From the sequence record PX104378.1: a stretch of 64,000 bases of DNA; one strand, written 5' to 3'. Positions 43,731 to 50,020 of the stretch are shown piece after piece; within the stretch, counting starts at the first letter, position 1; every line of letters starts with the position of its first letter. Under the pieces are notes generated by a model. The model had not been told where the DNA came from, did no database searches, and saw only the letters and a program-made list of their open reading frames with translations. Position numbers and translations under genes: made by a program. Source of the stretch: a phage.

Positions 43731-44285
43731 CTAAAAATTTTTAACACCATATTCACCAAAATAAAGATCAACCGCTTTGTCATAAGCTCTAGCCGCATCT
43801 TCTTCGTTGACATAATACCCAAGAGATATTAGTTTATCATTATTTCGTATTCTTGCAACCCATTTCTTCGTATGTTTATGCCAGCTAACTCCTTTATACT
43901 TGCTTGCTTTATTCTTGTACTTTCCAACGTTACAAGCATTTTTCTTTGCGTCGGACTCTCTAAGATTGCGCGGTGCGTTGTTTAAAGGATTTCGGTCTAT
44001 ATGATCTATAATTTCTGGTTGTGTTCCATGCTCAAGAAACCATACAACACGATGTACATATGGCTTTAAAACCCTCCCATTATCCATAACGATTGCAATT
44101 TGGAGATGATCCTGACTTTTAAAAGTTTTTACTTTATCTCCTGCCTTATAAAACTTTCCTTCGTAATTCTTTCCTCCGGCTCGGCTATTCTTTAAATGAT
44201 AAAGAATACCCTCATCGTCATGTCTATATCTTTCTCTTATAATTCGTTGCGTTTCTTCATCCCACAATTTGGAACGTCTACTCAT
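43731..44285 (-). CDS. HNH homing endonuclease with AP2 DNA-binding domain
   Basis: HNH core HRVVWFLEHG..IDHIDRNPLNNAPRNLR followed by AP2-like YKGVSWHKHTKKWVARI...LGYY..EEDAARAYD. Confidence 0.8.
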   Translation of the reverse strand: MSRRSKLWDEETQRIIRERYRHDDEGILYHLKNSRAGGKNYEGKFYKAGDKVKTFKSQDHLQIAIVMDNGRVLKPYVHRVVWFLEHGTQPEIIDHIDRNPLNNAPRNLRESDAKKNACNVGKYKNKASKYKGVSWHKHTKKWVARIRNNDKLISLGYYVNEEDAARAYDKAVDLYFGEYGVKNF

Positions 44286-44665: not shown

Positions 44666-44899
44666 TTATTTTCCTTCTGGGATATAGTCGATGATTAAAG
44701 AAAACTCATCTTCTGATACATTATAGCTATGTGAGATTGTACCCGTCAAGACCTCAAGATCCGGTGATTTGATATTGCACGGATCGATAATCACCGGAAC
44801 GCCGCAATCTCTCAAAAATAATTTGGCGAAATACGGCACAAGGTCAGTTTCAAACTCTGCTTCTTCCAGCAAACGGGAAATGTTAATTTTCAATCTCAT
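44666..44899 (-). CDS. Hypothetical protein
   Basis: 77-aa ORF immediately downstream of 55. Confidence 0.5.
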
Positions 44900-45416
44900 A
44901 AAATTGGTCCAGGCTAGGCAATTCCTCGGTCAATACATCTTCAACCTTTGGCGCTTTCGGTTTATTGACCGATTCCTCGTAGTTGTTGATCTTATCGTAA
45001 ATGTCCTGTATGAATGCCTCATCAGCAATCTGGCACATATCAGCGTCGCGTTCGTCATATACATGATGCACAAAATATTTGTATTTTGCGGCTGTCGCTG
45101 TTCTCTCTTTTTTAATGCGCTGTACAAAAGCATTAAAGCACGCTTGCGTGATGTAAGCATGAGGATTTTTATACTTTGTCTCGTCAAAATTAATCAAACC
45201 CTTGACCGCCGCTTCGATTCCATCGTCGATCATTTCTTCGCGCCATGTTTGACTATAGCCAGAAAAGTTAAAACGCCGTGATAGATTTTTAGAGATTTGC
45301 ATAATTGCTAGGCCGATTTGGTTGCTCATAGGCACTTGTCGACCTTCGGCTGCAATTCGTTGTTTCCAACGACAAATTTCTTCGTAAAGCTCTTTATTGT
45401 TTACATAATCAGACAC
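44883..45416 (-). CDS. 55: Late sigma factor gp55
   Basis: YVNNKEL; [61 protein letters not shown] near-identical to T4 gp55. Confidence 0.95.
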
Positions 45417-45456
45417 TTCGCACCCTCGCTATTATTTAGGAAATAACCCTTTCGGG

Positions 45457-46926
45457 CTATTCCCCATTGCCATTATACTTTCTTTGCTTAGTTATCCACA
45501 CTCTAACCATCTCTACTGATTCACCGTCAGACGGATCAAGAGTTTTTCCTTTTTTCTTCATGCGGTACTTAAATCCGTTAAATCTTGCATTCTCTTGCTC
45601 GTTAAAGTCGAACATCTTTTTAAATGATTTTCGCCCTTTACGCTCACCACATTCTAGCGGAATCATTCGGTCTGTTATTACATTGGCATTAGGTAGAAAC
45701 GTTTTTAGATAATCTACCAACGCCCAATCAGGAACATATAGATTAACATTCTCCTTGCTCTCGTTGTCTCTCAGGTTACAACGCAAACATAATTGAAATG
45801 CTGGTTCCAGATAATCAGACACATGACGCGCTTTCAAAAACTCATTTGTCGGGAGATCACAACTATTAGCAAGACCTTTTAAAATATCAATCTCCCATCG
45901 TTGAGGGTTAAAGCTGAACATCACCGCAACATTTTTATGATGAATGTAAGAGTTAAGACCATAAGACCCGTAAGGTATCCGCTCACCAATACCATTTGTA
46001 CACGCTTCACGGTCCCGATTCACGGTATAAATGAAGTCATCACCACATTCATTTTTAACCATATCAACAAGACGTTCAAAGGTATTGTTTGTTTCTGACT
46101 GGTGACGCGACCAGCGTTCGGAGTCCGTCATAAGGATGATATTAACTCTATCTGTATTTTTATACTCTTTGAAATATAGTCTGGATTCTAGCGCACTCGG
46201 AACAAAATCGCAATTTGCATAGTATCGTAGATACTTCCCGCTATATGTATCAAAGAGATTTGCACATGCTATCGTAACCTTTTTAAAGTCTCCCCACGTA
46301 CCGTGTTTGTTATCGTTCAAGAAAACAATTTTCGACCCATTCTTCCGGTGTCCTTCGTTATGTTTTACCATAACGTTGATTTTCTTCTCTAATAACGCCT
46401 CATAAAGCCCTCTAAGAGAAGAATCGATCATATCAGTACCATCCTTTGCACTTTCTATCTTTTCTTTGATAGCGGCCTTCTCAGAGTCTTTTAGAACTAG
46501 GTTCTGTAGGCATTCCGATTCGTCGGCGATTGGTTCGCAATGCTTCGTGATAAGTTCAAGATTAGACTTAAACGGATACTCATTAAATTCAACCAGTTGA
46601 GGAACTTCATCAATGTAAAGAGCATATTCACTAAACATTTTTGAACGCTCCATATTAGATAACGCTGTATGTGTGATGAATATCACATCAGCACCATCTT
46701 TAACTGATTGCATTATCGACGCTTGCACTGTCTTAAGGCTTCTTAGTCTGGTGCTATCAATCAAGACAGCACGACCGCCCATTCTTTTAAACTTATTGTA
46801 AGATTGTTCACTTAAAACACGAGATGGCGAAGCAATAACCGCTTTTTCTTTTGTCTCTAGGACGTGGGAAAGTATAGCATCAGTTTTCCCCGCCGCTGGC
46901 AATGCGATTAATGTTTCAATCTTCAT
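45457..46926 (-). CDS. P-loop NTPase of unknown function
   Basis: 489 aa; N-terminal Walker A-like ALPAAGKTD, SF2 motif-Ia-like ASPSRVL, Walker B-like LYIDEV; large C-terminal region without recognised motifs. Confidence 0.6.
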   Translation of the reverse strand: MKIETLIALPAAGKTDAILSHVLETKEKAVIASPSRVLSEQSYNKFKRMGGRAVLIDSTRLRSLKTVQASIMQSVKDGADVIFITHTALSNMERSKMFSEYALYIDEVPQLVEFNEYPFKSNLELITKHCEPIADESECLQNLVLKDSEKAAIKEKIESAKDGTDMIDSSLRGLYEALLEKKINVMVKHNEGHRKNGSKIVFLNDNKHGTWGDFKKVTIACANLFDTYSGKYLRYYANCDFVPSALESRLYFKEYKNTDRVNIILMTDSERWSRHQSETNNTFERLVDMVKNECGDDFIYTVNRDREACTNGIGERIPYGSYGLNSYIHHKNVAVMFSFNPQRWEIDILKGLANSCDLPTNEFLKARHVSDYLEPAFQLCLRCNLRDNESKENVNLYVPDWALVDYLKTFLPNANVITDRMIPLECGERKGRKSFKKMFDFNEQENARFNGFKYRMKKKGKTLDPSDGESVEMVRVWITKQRKYNGNGE

Positions 46927-47213
46927 TAGAAACCCTTACGTCGTGCTTTCTGGCATTTCTTGATCATTTTATCAGAAATTTCGCGCTTAGGTGCAATCTC
47001 TTTCACACCGAAAGCACTAATGCCAAATTCAGAGAGAATATATTCAACCAACAATTCACGCACACGCGCTTTACCGATATTCACGCCGTTATTTTTCAGA
47101 TATGTCTGGCCTTCGACTTGCATCAGATCTAAATCCGCGTCGGTAATATTGATTTCTTCCATGCGCCCAAATCGAGAATAAACCATGTGTGCGATTGCAT
47201 TGTGTACTAACAT
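46926..47213 (-). CDS. Hypothetical protein
   Basis: Track ORF starts at TTG; trimmed to ATG after GAGGAATATATT. Confidence 0.45.
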   Translation of the reverse strand: MLVHNAIAHMVYSRFGRMEEINITDADLDLMQVEGQTYLKNNGVNIGKARVRELLVEYILSEFGISAFGVKEIAPKREISDKMIKKCQKARRKGF

Positions 47214-47234
47214 AATATATTCCTCACTCAAGAA

Positions 47235-47393
47235 TTACTTAATGATACTGACTTTACCAGATCCGTGACAATGAGCGCAACACCCATCACCACGCAATCC
47301 TGTTCCGTTACAGTGTTTACACTTCTTCAACGGTAAAGTCATTATAGCAAATAAAGCAATAATGAACACCGAAACTAAATTCTCAATAATCAT
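47235..47393 (-). CDS. 52-aa membrane-anchored protein with two CxxCxGxG zinc-finger repeats
   Basis: Not in track. ATG preceded by GAGGG; MIIENLVSVFIIALFAIMTLPLKKCKHCNGTGLRGDGCCAHCHGSGKVSIIK. Confidence 0.5.
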   Translation of the reverse strand: MIIENLVSVFIIALFAIMTLPLKKCKHCNGTGLRGDGCCAHCHGSGKVSIIK

Positions 47394-47652
47394 AAATCGC
47401 CCTCAGTTCTTTATAGCCTCCAATGTGCTCGTTGTCAATGAATATCTGGGGGTATACAAACCGGAGGCTCTTTGAGTTTAGCCTCCCCGCCAGTTCTTCA
47501 ATCATATCACGGTCGGGAATAATGTCAACCCCGACCTGCTTGAATACTGGTTTAAGTGTATACGGAATACCCAGATCATCCAGTAGCTTCATTGCACTAA
47601 TACAACCATAACAATGATAAGCCTCTTTCGGTATACCGTATATCTCGATCAT
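47383..47652 (-). CDS. nrdH: Glutaredoxin-like protein (NrdH-like)
   Basis: 89 aa; CxxC active site CYGC near N-terminus; glutaredoxin motif VYPQIFIDNEHIGGYKEL; adjacent to nrd genes. Confidence 0.7.
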   Translation of the reverse strand: MIEIYGIPKEAYHCYGCISAMKLLDDLGIPYTLKPVFKQVGVDIIPDRDMIEELAGRLNSKSLRFVYPQIFIDNEHIGGYKELRAIYDY

Positions 47653-48146
47653 TTCTCAGCCTTTAATCTTTCTAGTTCTTCTTCCAGTTCCTTGATCCGT
47701 TGGTCACGTTCAAAGTCACGCTGTAACTTAGTGGCGAATACTCGTTTAAACTGATTGTAATCATCGATTTTAAACACTTCTTCTTCGCCATAGCGACGCA
47801 CAGAAACTTCGTAGTTGTTGAAAAATTGTTCCAACATTGCATCAGTAGTCAGTTCTGACGACACCACTTTAAAATAACGTTCTTCTGATTGCAAAAACCA
47901 GTTGTGCGCGTATTCCCGTACATCATCAACATCTCGACAGGTGTATGTTTTTCCATCAATTTCAATCGCAGAAACATATTCGATATCTGACGCAATTTTT
48001 TCAAAAGCGATAACTTTAAATGTACGGTCACCGATAAAGTCTGCTATTGCATCATTTGCAACACTGGTTGCAAAGGCTTTCCGCGCTCGCTCGTTTTTCC
48101 ACTGATAGGTCATACCAACAACAAACATATTACCATCAACAAACAT
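47649..48146 (-). CDS. Paralog-family protein (WEVGKTY / DGxTY / ERxYF modules)
   Basis: Shares GMTYQWKNERARKAF, IDGKTYTCRDVDD, EERYFKVV and C-terminal coiled coil with neighbours; start set to ATG adjacent to upstream stop. Confidence 0.5.
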   Translation of the reverse strand: MFVDGNMFVVGMTYQWKNERARKAFATSVANDAIADFIGDRTFKVIAFEKIASDIEYVSAIEIDGKTYTCRDVDDVREYAHNWFLQSEERYFKVVSSELTTDAMLEQFFNNYEVSVRRYGEEEVFKIDDYNQFKRVFATKLQRDFERDQRIKELEEELERLKAEK

Positions 48147-48147
48147 A

Positions 48148-48981
48148 TTACCAACCTCGCTCTTTACCAATCAAAAATTCAACTTCACGACGTTTAATGT
48201 CTTCTTGAAGGTCTTTAATCTTCTGGCGATCTTGCATGATTTCATCCATCTTGTCAAGTGCCGCAATGAAATCATCGAAACGTTCAAAGGTTTTACCTTC
48301 ATTTGCTTCGCCAAATTTAACCATTGTCAGGCCATAACGACTACTAAAAAGACGCTTCAACTGTCCAACGACCTTAGAATCATCGTTCACCTTTTCTTCT
48401 GGTTCTTTCACGGTTTCAACTTCACGAAAATATTTTCGTTCAAGCCCAACAAACCACACAGCATCAACATCATCATCAACACCCGCCGAATGAGGATTAA
48501 ATGTTCCACAAACATTATCATTATTGATGTCGATCATAGTAACGAAACCAACAGAATCAACGGAAGATACCGTAAAAGTCTCATCTCCTATCCAATCAGC
48601 AATTTTACGGTTGATATTAGAACAGTGAGAAAACGTCACTTTTGCGTTTACATCCTTCCAAATATAAGTTTTACCAACTTCCCATTTAGGAGGAACTTCT
48701 TCAACTTCACGAAAGAATTTTATATCAAATGGACTAAACAAATATGTTGACGTCCAAATGTCTTTTCCTGTAGCCGTTTTCGCCGTATGATAAACACCGT
48801 CTAGCTCTATTACATTAATCCAACCATCACCTTCGTTCTCGATGATGGTAAATGGCTTGTCACCAATAGCTGCACTGATATCGCTGTTAAGTGGAGAAAG
48901 AACACCTTCTCCGTTAGTAATAAACTCAGTTTTAGCGTTTTCATCTTTCCAAGTGTAAGTTTTACCAATTTCCCATTTCAT
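48148..48981 (-). CDS. Paralog-family protein (internally duplicated)
   Basis: MKWEIGKTYTWKDENAKTEF and internal repeat WEVGKTYIWKDVNAKVTF; FFREVE / YFREVE motifs. Confidence 0.55.
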   Translation of the reverse strand: MKWEIGKTYTWKDENAKTEFITNGEGVLSPLNSDISAAIGDKPFTIIENEGDGWINVIELDGVYHTAKTATGKDIWTSTYLFSPFDIKFFREVEEVPPKWEVGKTYIWKDVNAKVTFSHCSNINRKIADWIGDETFTVSSVDSVGFVTMIDINNDNVCGTFNPHSAGVDDDVDAVWFVGLERKYFREVETVKEPEEKVNDDSKVVGQLKRLFSSRYGLTMVKFGEANEGKTFERFDDFIAALDKMDEIMQDRQKIKDLQEDIKRREVEFLIGKERGW

Positions 48982-48993
48982 AATATATTCCCC

Positions 48994-49461
48994 TTAACCG
49001 ATTTTATCAAGTTCGTTTAATGCTTTCTCAGCTTCCTGTATAGCTTGCACTCTTTCCGGCATTTTGTCAAGAAAATCTTTCAACTCTTCAAAACTGGAGA
49101 TATGACGCAAGGCGTTAGCACCGATAGCCGCATGTGATTTGCATTCAAAGCGGATTTTATAATTATCCATCGCCAACTTGAGAAGATCAATTAATTTAGA
49201 TTCTTCTGGAATAATAATTTCTTCAAATCTGCTACGGTCATGATCCAGAAACCAACAATATAGACCTACATCGGTTGAACTCATATAAGTTCCATCATGA
49301 AGATAAACAGACCGCACGTATCCTTTTTTCGCATCAACCGACGCAACTTTAAACGGTAATCTCAGATATTTCAAATAATCAACATCATACCATTTTAAAA
49401 AATGGTCTGCATCTTTTACATCTTTCCAGGCATAGGTCTTACCAACTTCCCATTTCAACAT
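48994..49461 (-). CDS. Paralog-family protein
   Basis: MLKWEVGKTYAWKDVKDADHF; helical C-terminal module. Confidence 0.55.
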   Translation of the reverse strand: MLKWEVGKTYAWKDVKDADHFLKWYDVDYLKYLRLPFKVASVDAKKGYVRSVYLHDGTYMSSTDVGLYCWFLDHDRSRFEEIIIPEESKLIDLLKLAMDNYKIRFECKSHAAIGANALRHISSFEELKDFLDKMPERVQAIQEAEKALNELDKIG

Positions 49462-49465
49462 AATA

Positions 49466-50020
49466 TCACCTTTCGTTTTTGATACGTGATTCTAATTGGA
49501 TCATACGGTCGCGCGTTTGTTTGTATTCTCGGATAGCACCGATCCGGCTAGGCATACCATCCAGTACGCTCTTAATACCTTCTAGGGTAGTGATTTTAGC
49601 AATGCTATTATGTAACCCCATCTTATCGATCAACTGAATGTCGTAGGCTTCCATAAGCAGACCCAGACGTTCTAATGTTAAATCCGGTTCTTGTTCTTTA
49701 TCTTCTTCCTTTTCTTCCGGTTCTGGGATTTCTTTGTCAATAGTAGCTTCGGTAAAGAAACGACGCTCACCAGCCCAAAACCACACACCGTAACAGTTAA
49801 TAGGGGATTCTTTTAAAGTCATGGAGTCGAAATCACTACCAATAATAGTAATTTCTCTAACATCACCATCGTCATCAATGTCTTCTACCTTAAACGGGCG
49901 ACCAGCCAACAAGTCCACAATACATCCGTTAATACCCGACGAAAATTTAGTCAGTTCAGCTTTCGACGCTTCGCATTTAATATTGTAGATTTTACCTACT
50001 TCCCATTCCATAATAATCAC
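49466..50020 (-). CDS. Paralog-family protein
   Basis: MEWEVGKIYNIKCEASKAELTKF; ERRFFTEA; helical C-terminal module. Confidence 0.55.
   Translation of the reverse strand: MIIMEWEVGKIYNIKCEASKAELTKFSSGINGCIVDLLAGRPFKVEDIDDDGDVREITIIGSDFDSMTLKESPINCYGVWFWAGERRFFTEATIDKEIPEPEEKEEDKEQEPDLTLERLGLLMEAYDIQLIDKMGLHNSIAKITTLEGIKSVLDGMPSRIGAIREYKQTRDRMIQLESRIKNER

Follow-up and report, generated by a model that had tools for sequence, protein, structure and literature searches.

A helicase-like gene beside gene 55 of a Krischvirus phage is predicted to encode a complete SF2 ATPase with primase-fused relatives

Introduction

T4-type phages provide a textbook system of replication in which three helicases are at work. 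What, then, is the role of a further large P-loop protein encoded beside the late sigma factor gene of a T4-type phage? We address this question in a 64,000-nucleotide stretch of phage DNA (sequence record PX104378.1), the whole of which is called the window here. An earlier note on this DNA had described a candidate helicase- or translocase-like enzyme, possibly active in anti-defence or nucleic-acid processing, and had remarked that T4 has only small 55.x ORFs at this position. The remark about T4 is correct, as the slot between 55.2 and 55 is filled there by 55.1 (87 aa) alone. T4 55.1 was also considered as a decayed remnant of the helicase gene and rejected, the two being unrelated (hhalign probability 0.1%).

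Results

The reading frame and its selection

Positions 45457-46926 of the minus strand form one 489-aa ATG ORF, the coordinates including the stop codon. Its translation contains the stretches pointed out in the earlier note, ALPAAGKTD (residues 9-17), PSRVL (34-38) and LYIDEV (103-108), and no opposite-strand ORF within these limits is longer than 81 aa. The gene directly downstream does encode the late sigma factor, as had been stated. The gene and its surroundings are as follows:

45457..46926, minus strand: helicase-like gene, orthologue of RB49 ORF044c (NP_891615), from the ORF, phrog_2467 and Pfam DEAD
44883..45416, minus strand: gene 55, late sigma factor, downstream neighbour (phrog_234, E 4.6e-63; RB49 annotation)
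46926..47231, minus strand: gp55.2-like gene (DUF7570, 101 aa), upstream neighbour (Pfam DUF7570, E 1.4e-28)
47501..47528, minus strand: sigma-70-like promoter match, TTGACA-16-TATGAT with TG (11 of 12 consensus positions)

The window belongs to a Krischvirus of the RB49/Phi1/JSE/JK32 type. Around the helicase gene, some 6 kb are 96-98% identical to 59 Krischvirus genomes; Shigella phage JK32 encodes the same protein with 100% identity, and Phi1/JSE encode it with 99.6%. At the nucleotide level, the gene differs from its JK32 counterpart by 21 synonymous and no non-synonymous changes (21 of 21 synonymous), from that of RB49 by 13 synonymous and one non-synonymous, and from that of Ec_Makalu_002 by 21 and seven, respectively. 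Since the differences from close relatives are almost all synonymous, the 489-aa frame is under purifying selection. This bias, the end-to-end match to phrog_2467 (PHROGs, 'unknown function', E 2.6e-174), the presence of the gene in 244 phage records (see below) and the 66 residues that are invariant in an alignment of 25 homologues with 32-74% identity make the ORF more than a chance frame.

The locus

The helicase gene is located in a block of 46/47, 55 and nrd genes and is co-oriented with early/middle DNA-metabolism genes. The TAA stop of the gp55.2-like gene overlaps the helicase ATG (TAATG), as seen in TTCTAATGAAG, and because of this overlap the two genes are probably translationally coupled. 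The best sigma-70-like match upstream on the coding strand, a match to consensus at 47501..47528, lies inside an nrdH-like ORF and is a candidate early promoter for a 52-aa ORF, 55.2 and the helicase gene. A homing endonuclease is also encoded in this region of the window.

The helicase gene is immediately preceded by a 55.2-like gene in Krischvirus, Proteus PM2, Citrobacter Miller and two more phage contigs, so that the position adjoining 55.2 is kept in at least five lineages. An obligatory pairing with gp55.2 was nevertheless rejected, as T4 keeps 55.2 without the helicase though the genes adjoin in five lineages, and the adjacency is best read as synteny with translational coupling, which does not prove that the two act together. 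In Aeromonas phage 31, the overlapping upstream gene encodes instead a 187-aa 'DprA-like' protein, for which we found no Pfam match and no PDB sequence match. A functional pairing with this gene is not supported either: 1352 phage records carry it, independently of the helicase.

Two RecA-like domains, an insertion and a basic tail

The earlier note had left the C-terminal ~380 aa without any assignable motif. The 25-homologue alignment and an AlphaFold model built on it (mean pLDDT 87.4, pTM 0.75) give the following division of the protein:

46597..46926, minus strand: RecA-like domain 1, first part, residues 1-110 (invariant residues, model, Pfam DEAD)
46882-46899, minus strand: motif I, PAAGKT, residues 10-15 (invariant in the 25 homologues)
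46603-46620, minus strand: motif II, LYIDEV, within residues 1-110
46282..46596, minus strand: inserted domain, residues 111-215, between motifs II and III (model; hhalign)
46162..46281, minus strand: RecA-like domain 1, return, residues 216-255, with the motif III-like VTIACANL (alignment and model)
45637..46161, minus strand: RecA-like domain 2, residues 256-430, with the motif IV-like FIYTVN and V-like YGLNSY
45769-45795, minus strand: motif VI, QLCLRCNLR, in RecA-like domain 2
45460..45636, minus strand: basic helical tail, residues 431-489, two helices (model, pI, alignment)

The first 110 residues also hold motif Ia (ASPSRVLSEQS) and the Ib-like VIFITHTAL, and their invariant positions in the 25 homologues are P10, G13, K14, T15, S33, Q41, S42, F83, T85, H86, D106, E107 and P109; as a string, IDEVP (105-109) is also invariant. 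Pfam DEAD/DEAH (PF00270) matches residues 11-130 with 28.6 bits against a cut-off of 26. Across the alignment, the consensus blocks of the N-terminal part are PAAGKT, ASxSRxLSxQS, VIFITHxxL, LYIDEVP and VTIAxAN, and those of the C-terminal part are FIYTxNxxR, YxxxGLNxY, FSxNPxxW and EPxFQLCxRxxxR. In the model, the protein consists of two RecA-like alpha/beta domains, an insertion of about 105 residues in the first of them and a two-helix tail. The insertion is modelled with strands at 113-119, 186-189 and 198-204 and helices at 147-161 and 166-179. The chain then returns to the first domain with a strand at 216-221; T218 and G230 are invariant in residues 216-255, and N223 is nearly so. Motif VI contributes the invariant Q378, R382 and R386. 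The tail has a pI of 10.06, helices at 443-458 and 468-486 behind a low-confidence linker (426-432), and two residues that are invariant in the 25 homologues, E445 and W477.

The sequence thus combines Walker A and Walker B in one RecA-like domain with a second RecA-like domain that carries motifs IV-VI and their arginines, as in SF2. The ~380 residues set aside earlier hold invariant FIYTxN, HGLNxY and QLCxRxxxR (motifs IV-VI), so that what had seemed unassignable becomes an inserted domain followed by the second half of a standard SF2 core. On alignment and model, the 489-aa protein is predicted to be a complete SF2 helicase-type ATPase and not merely an N-terminal P-loop. Searches with the 489-aa protein in NCBIfam gave no match, and sequence searches of the PDB with the single sequence and with the 25-sequence profile gave nothing meaningful.

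Comparison with known helicases

The structure prediction and Foldseek search proposed with the earlier note gave a confident two-RecA-domain model for which XPD (2.4e-10), CasDinG (4e-10) and DinG (3.7e-9) ranked first in the PDB. The XPD/DinG matches align 315-355 residues, against at most 257 for other two-domain helicases. Together with the Pfam DEAD match and the two RecA-like domains, these structural matches bear out the description of the protein as a helicase/translocase-like P-loop enzyme. Like the protein studied here, XPD/Rad3, DinG and CasDinG (Csf4) have two RecA-like domains and a large insertion in the first after motif II, and the ~105-residue insertion corresponds to the XPD/DinG Arch domain in topological position, the correspondence being one of position only. 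The Ib-like VIFITHxxL and the IV-like FxYTxNSY are also, in our view, reminiscent of XPD/DinG family motifs.

The likeness has clear limits. Identity in the XPD/DinG structural matches is only 9-15%, with TM-scores of only 0.45-0.5, and Pfam DEAD_2 (PF06733) and Helicase_C_2 (PF13307) matched neither the protein (E <= 1) nor 40 relatives (E <= 0.1). Motif II is DEVP where XPD/DinG have DEAH, and at 489 aa the protein is much smaller. The four-cysteine cluster of the XPD family Fe-S domain is missing: C130 and C380 are the only cysteines invariant in the 25 homologues, the Ia-Ib segment is about 35 residues long and free of cysteine, and there is none between motifs Ia and II. Certain other members of the group, namely CasDinG and some DinG proteins such as that of S. 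aureus, are likewise not known to have an Fe-S cluster. One long-form relative (P0074) matches the CasDinG (Csf4) model by sequence, as a weak and single match (E 1.3e-6). In the model, then, the architecture is closest to XPD/Rad3, DinG and CasDinG, without the Fe-S cluster, whereas by sequence the protein belongs to an SF2 family separate from XPD/DinG.

The Pfam match to DEAD/DEAH and the position next to gene 55 could suggest an RNA helicase or an RNA-polymerase-associated translocase acting in transcription or mRNA metabolism. We consider this very unlikely. Compared with DEAD-box RNA helicases, motif II is DEVP instead of DEAD/DEAH and motif III is CAN/SAN instead of SAT, and the protein begins nine residues before the P-loop, which leaves no room for a Q motif. 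The best full-length matches are DNA helicases, relatives are fused to a DNA primase (see below), and the place beside gene 55 is not kept everywhere, since Citrobacter phage Miller has gp34 downstream of the helicase in place of gp55.

Nor is the protein one of the characterised T4-like core proteins, in keeping with the earlier note: it is orthologous neither to Dda (SF1B) nor to UvsW (SF2), nor to gp41. The UvsW structural match falls well below XPD/DinG, with only 161 residues aligned. A replacement for Dda was excluded, because RB49 encodes both dda and gene 41, annotated separately from the helicase gene; the protein is thus a helicase additional to gp41 and Dda and not a substitute for them. 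T4-type genomes also encode UvsW, and beside gp41, Dda and UvsW the protein would be the fourth helicase of this phage.

Distribution among T4-type phages

By tblastn, the gene was found in 244 phage records, and in 238 of these the match spans 80% or more of its length. The records carry the host names Aeromonas (77), Escherichia (54), Cronobacter (19), Enterobacter (18), Citrobacter (12), Klebsiella (9), Serratia (8), Proteus (7) and others, and all the helicase-bearing GenBank records annotate the product as a hypothetical protein. As a denominator, gp55 of the window finds 2001 phage records. The survey of T4-like genomes that had been suggested earlier thus places the helicase in 244 of about 2000 gp55-bearing records, approximately one T4-type in eight. 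Nearly all Aeromonas T4-types carry it (77 of 78). The gene is absent from T4 and likewise from Escherichia T4-type records outside Krischvirus and Pseudotevenvirus, and names frequent among the gp55 matches, such as Synechococcus (374), Acinetobacter (70), Cyanophage (61) and Vibrio (56), are not among the ten commonest for the helicase. Because about 88% of the gp55-bearing records lack it, T4-type phages in general can complete their life cycle without the helicase. A scan of bacterial genomes for the conserved peptide patterns returned only two loci, both resembling T4-type phage DNA within bacterial assemblies.

Primase-fused relatives

A profile search of 1.84 billion cluster representatives recovered 1347 proteins at E <= 0.001, 778 of them at E <= 1e-10. 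The best 150 of the 1347 fall into two size classes, of about 500 aa and about 750-900 aa. The T4-type proteins align with the long forms over the entire helicase module, the inserted domain included (hhalign probability 100%, E 2.1e-66, 430 columns), and the 489-aa protein matches phrog_31024 directly (E 8.2e-10). The coverage of the hhalign alignment stops at about residue 450, so that only the first part of the tail has a counterpart in the long helicase-primase relatives, namely their linker helix.

Beyond the helicase module, 61 of 62 long forms share a C-terminal extension with the blocks LDxDGG, RYRVFIP, GxDxSK and FYLPC. This extension matches PHROG families annotated as 'DNA primase', namely phrog_9765 in 12 of 20 members (best E 1e-12), phrog_2135 (6.5e-12) and phrog_17236, as well as phrog_3228 ('replicative helicase-primase'), and some members have PriCT_1 or PriCT_2 at its end (best E 4.9e-7). 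It is on account of the 'DNA primase' and PriCT matches that we assign it as primase-like; a profile of this domain found nothing that identifies it in Pfam or among PDB sequences. When one long form was modelled with AlphaFold (pLDDT 87.8), the helicase (1-430) led through a linker helix into an alpha/beta domain (490-710), and a four-helix bundle (725-794) came last. The phrog_31024-type fusions are thus homologous to the phage protein over the entire helicase module and continue into a primase-like domain and PriCT, whereas the phage protein stops after its tail of about 60 residues and lacks both.

The non-T4 relatives sit in phage-like contigs or in bacterial islands. In five of the seven non-phage-like contexts examined, a gene for a small serine recombinase (PF00239) is no more than 2.5 kb away from the relative, and two contexts include a tyrosine integrase. 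The islands often carry cargo in the form of type I restriction-modification, TIR or DUF4062 genes.

Two alternatives meet their evidence here. The first takes up the anti-defence function that had been raised as a possibility: the helicase would strip, decoy or outrun a host immune nuclease or helicase, or would shield unmodified cytosine DNA. The gene is indeed accessory and patchy (244 of about 2000 gp55-bearing records), it is missing from T4 and from the Escherichia T4-types outside Krischvirus/Pseudotevenvirus, which we take to be lineages with modified cytosine, and its bacterial relatives occur in islands with TIR, type I restriction-modification and DUF4062 genes. However, PADLOC gave only a chance-level match for the protein (E 0.0087, 13.6 bits); for six of nine relatives there was none at E <= 0.01, and the other three were weak, in the generic N-terminal helicase region, or chance-level. 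Within the islands, it is the recombinase, the core of mobility, that the helicase accompanies, and not the cargo of defence genes; the fusion to a primase argues for replication, and a literature search found no paper tying the family to defence. With no significant PADLOC match for the protein or its close bacterial relatives, and with fusions that point to replication, we did not retain the anti-defence suggestion, which now looks rather improbable.

The second alternative sees in the gene a selfish remnant, captured from the replication gene of a mobile element and of no present use to the phage. The relatives are typical of integrated mobile elements, and a homing endonuclease gene is also found in the region. 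Such a remnant would hardly be expected to keep all its catalytic residues invariant across genera at 32-74% identity, to change almost purely synonymously between close relatives, or to hold a stable locus in at least five lineages, and we regard this reading as extremely unlikely.

Published hints and the likeness to UL9

A helicase hint for this protein is not new, having been published in 2006 and, for what is probably the same family, in 2018. Nolan et al. 2006 listed RB49ORF044c with a weak Pfam DEAD match, E 0.069 (PMC1524935). Kazlauskas et al. 2018 described fusions in which All3500-type AEP primases are joined to remote SF2-like helicase domains, named as closest homologues uncharacterised proteins of 'some T4-like phages' (pVOG1685/9714) and predicted that viruses and plasmids encode a new family of helicases (PMC5862659). 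The phrog_31024-type family is probably the pVOG1685/9714 helicase family of that study. The domain order differs: their fusions have the primase first and the helicase after it (PMC5862659), whereas in the long forms found here the primase-like domain follows the helicase. Our literature search by locus tags, accession and PHROG id found no mention of the protein, and these two papers are the only earlier mentions that we came upon.

The same study noted UL9 similarity for pVOG9714, as a sister group (PMC5862659), which raises the question of whether the phage protein could be an origin-binding initiator, with a basic C-terminal tail that recognises a specific site and a motor that opens the DNA, as in UL9. 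Herpesvirus UL9 (PF02399) resembles it in that a DNA virus encodes it, that it is an SF2 helicase and that its DNA-binding part is C-terminal. Two of 40 relatives, both long forms, match Herpes_ori_bp weakly (E 0.0086), the HHV-3 origin-binding protein appears in a viral fold search (E 5e-6), the two-helix tail (pI ~10) could bind DNA, and the long forms look like the sole replication protein of their mobile elements. The likeness is nonetheless marginal, and much weaker than that to XPD/DinG (Foldseek TM-score 0.34, rank 36); the protein itself has no Pfam match to PF02399 (Herpes_ori_bp), and its tail is short and poorly conserved except for E445 and W477. An initiator function is therefore unlikely.

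Discussion

The combination of alignment, structure prediction and comparison with primase-fused relatives leads us to propose that the 489-aa protein is a stand-alone, catalytically intact SF2 DNA helicase or translocase with an accessory part in phage replication and recombination; we give this reading a probability of about 0.6. A role in replication is favoured because the domain fusions of the relatives, to a primase, point to DNA replication. The enzyme would move along single-stranded DNA at the expense of ATP. As an aid to the gp41-gp61 primosome, it may open or clear forks, D-loops, R-loops or bound proteins while the phage DNA is replicated, including by the recombination-dependent mode. 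Its polarity would probably be 5'-to-3', as suggested by the fold similarity to XPD/DinG, and such a polarity would put primase on the lagging-strand template. This polarity is the least secure part of the proposal: UL9 unwinds DNA 3'-to-5', and since there is weak similarity to UL9, the polarity could also be the opposite. What counts against the proposal is that the phage already has three helicases and a primase of its own.

A broader reading, which we offer tentatively and consider doubtful as a whole, joins three proposals: that the protein and its 1300-plus relatives form a family of Fe-S-free, XPD-like replicative helicases; that the long forms are a helicase-primase replicase of reversed domain order; and that a subset of T4-type phages captured the bare helicase module. 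On this reading, the helicase-then-primase replicase of mobile elements would team with a small serine recombinase, and the captured module, together with the phage's own primase, might run a second route of unwinding and priming that does not depend on gp41, recombination intermediates being one example of where it could act.

From a biological perspective, a conserved fourth helicase would show that part of DNA metabolism is run differently from T4 in Krischvirus, the Aeromonas T4-types, Pseudotevenvirus, Bragavirus and other genera. Phages and resolvase-bearing integrated elements appear to encode an unusual helicase-primase replicase of which this family is the helicase half. As it comprises more than 1300 sequence clusters, the characterisation of one soluble 489-aa member would allow many 'hypothetical' genes to be annotated, and it would put to the test whether an XPD-like fold can serve as a replicative motor when it has no Fe-S cluster.

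The helicase gene and its neighbours in the window

The 3′ end of the gene for the 489-aa SF2 helicase-like protein differs in Escherichia phage Ec_Makalu_002 (locus L018), where the TAG stop codon is replaced by TCG (site equivalent to window 45436-45459). Because of this substitution, the open reading frame is 7 codons longer and ends at a TAA codon; the CDS is annotated at 1491 nt. In the window, a small CCC-GAAA-GGG hairpin follows the helicase gene (45447-45456), and the Ec_Makalu_002 extension reads through it.

Other features near the helicase gene are as follows:

43731-44285, minus strand: homing-endonuclease gene, HNH (PF13392) and AP2 (PF00847), between gene 47 and a-gt.4
47235-47393, minus strand: 52-aa ORF, phrog_3931 (E 4.4e-10)
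47649-50020, minus strand: four consecutive paralogous ORFs of 173, 277, 155 and 184 aa, recognized by a common N-terminal motif and BLASTP

The 6-kb region harboring the homing-endonuclease gene shows coverage reduced to 86-96% in many Krischvirus genomes that are otherwise 96-98% identical, and the endonuclease gene is not listed in several of the records with reduced coverage. The drop, which concerns the 6-kb region as a whole, and the unlisted endonuclease fit a mobile gene that is present in some Krischvirus genomes and absent from others.

The N-terminus of the 52-aa ORF is hydrophobic, and the ORF also contains a zinc-ribbon-like CxxCxGxG...CxxCxGxG motif. Its Pfam matches are all weak; among them are the C-terminal part of the Gabija anti-defence protein Gad1 (E 0.16) and the DnaJ CXXCXGXG domain. 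An M(x)WE(V/I)GKTY(x)WKD-like motif stands at the start of each of the four paralogous ORFs. The unit is present in two copies in the 277-aa ORF, and comparison of the four with each other gave BLASTP E values of 1e-5 to 1e-11. These ORFs are a gene family amplified in tandem, located just upstream of the nrdH-like gene.

Relatives of the helicase in other genomes

Among loci filed under bacterial genomes, close homologues of the helicase were found only at L004, on a 43-kb contig of a Bacilli MAG, and L005, on a 178,077-bp contig of ‘Flagellimonas marina’ (NZ_JBHSCL010000010.1). Both are arranged as in T4-type phages, with a DUF7570 gene followed by the helicase gene; at L005 a 1219-aa ORF comes next, at the position that the gp34-like tail fibre gene occupies in Citrobacter phage Miller. 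These two loci are probably phage DNA wrongly assigned to bacterial assemblies.

The relative P0051 is encoded on a 146-kb phage-like contig (L011/L012), immediately downstream of the gene for a 495-aa CapR-domain protein (PF21817), with just one predicted 36-aa ORF overlapping the junction. Its gene also comes after an N6/N4 DNA methyltransferase gene, and an IS607-like resolvase and OrfB pair lies nearby.

In P0043 and about 60 other ~800-aa relatives (alignments A2 and A3), the helicase module is followed by a primase-like domain and then PriCT. This domain order is reversed compared with the usual primase-helicase proteins and opposite to that of the related fusions of Kazlauskas et al. 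2018 (PMC5862659). P0156 (1266 aa) carries a further ~400-residue region at its N-terminus.

Finally, a small serine recombinase (resolvase) was repeatedly encoded within 2.5 kb of a helicase relative in bacterial or metagenomic loci: P0074 (L006), P0054 (L009), P0053 (L013), P0058 (L014) and P0081 (L016). These relatives occur with or without the primase extension, and among the cargo encoded nearby are a TIR protein, a protein kinase, DUF4062 and type I restriction-modification. The helicase(-primase) and the resolvase look like the core of an integrated element of a class so far undescribed.
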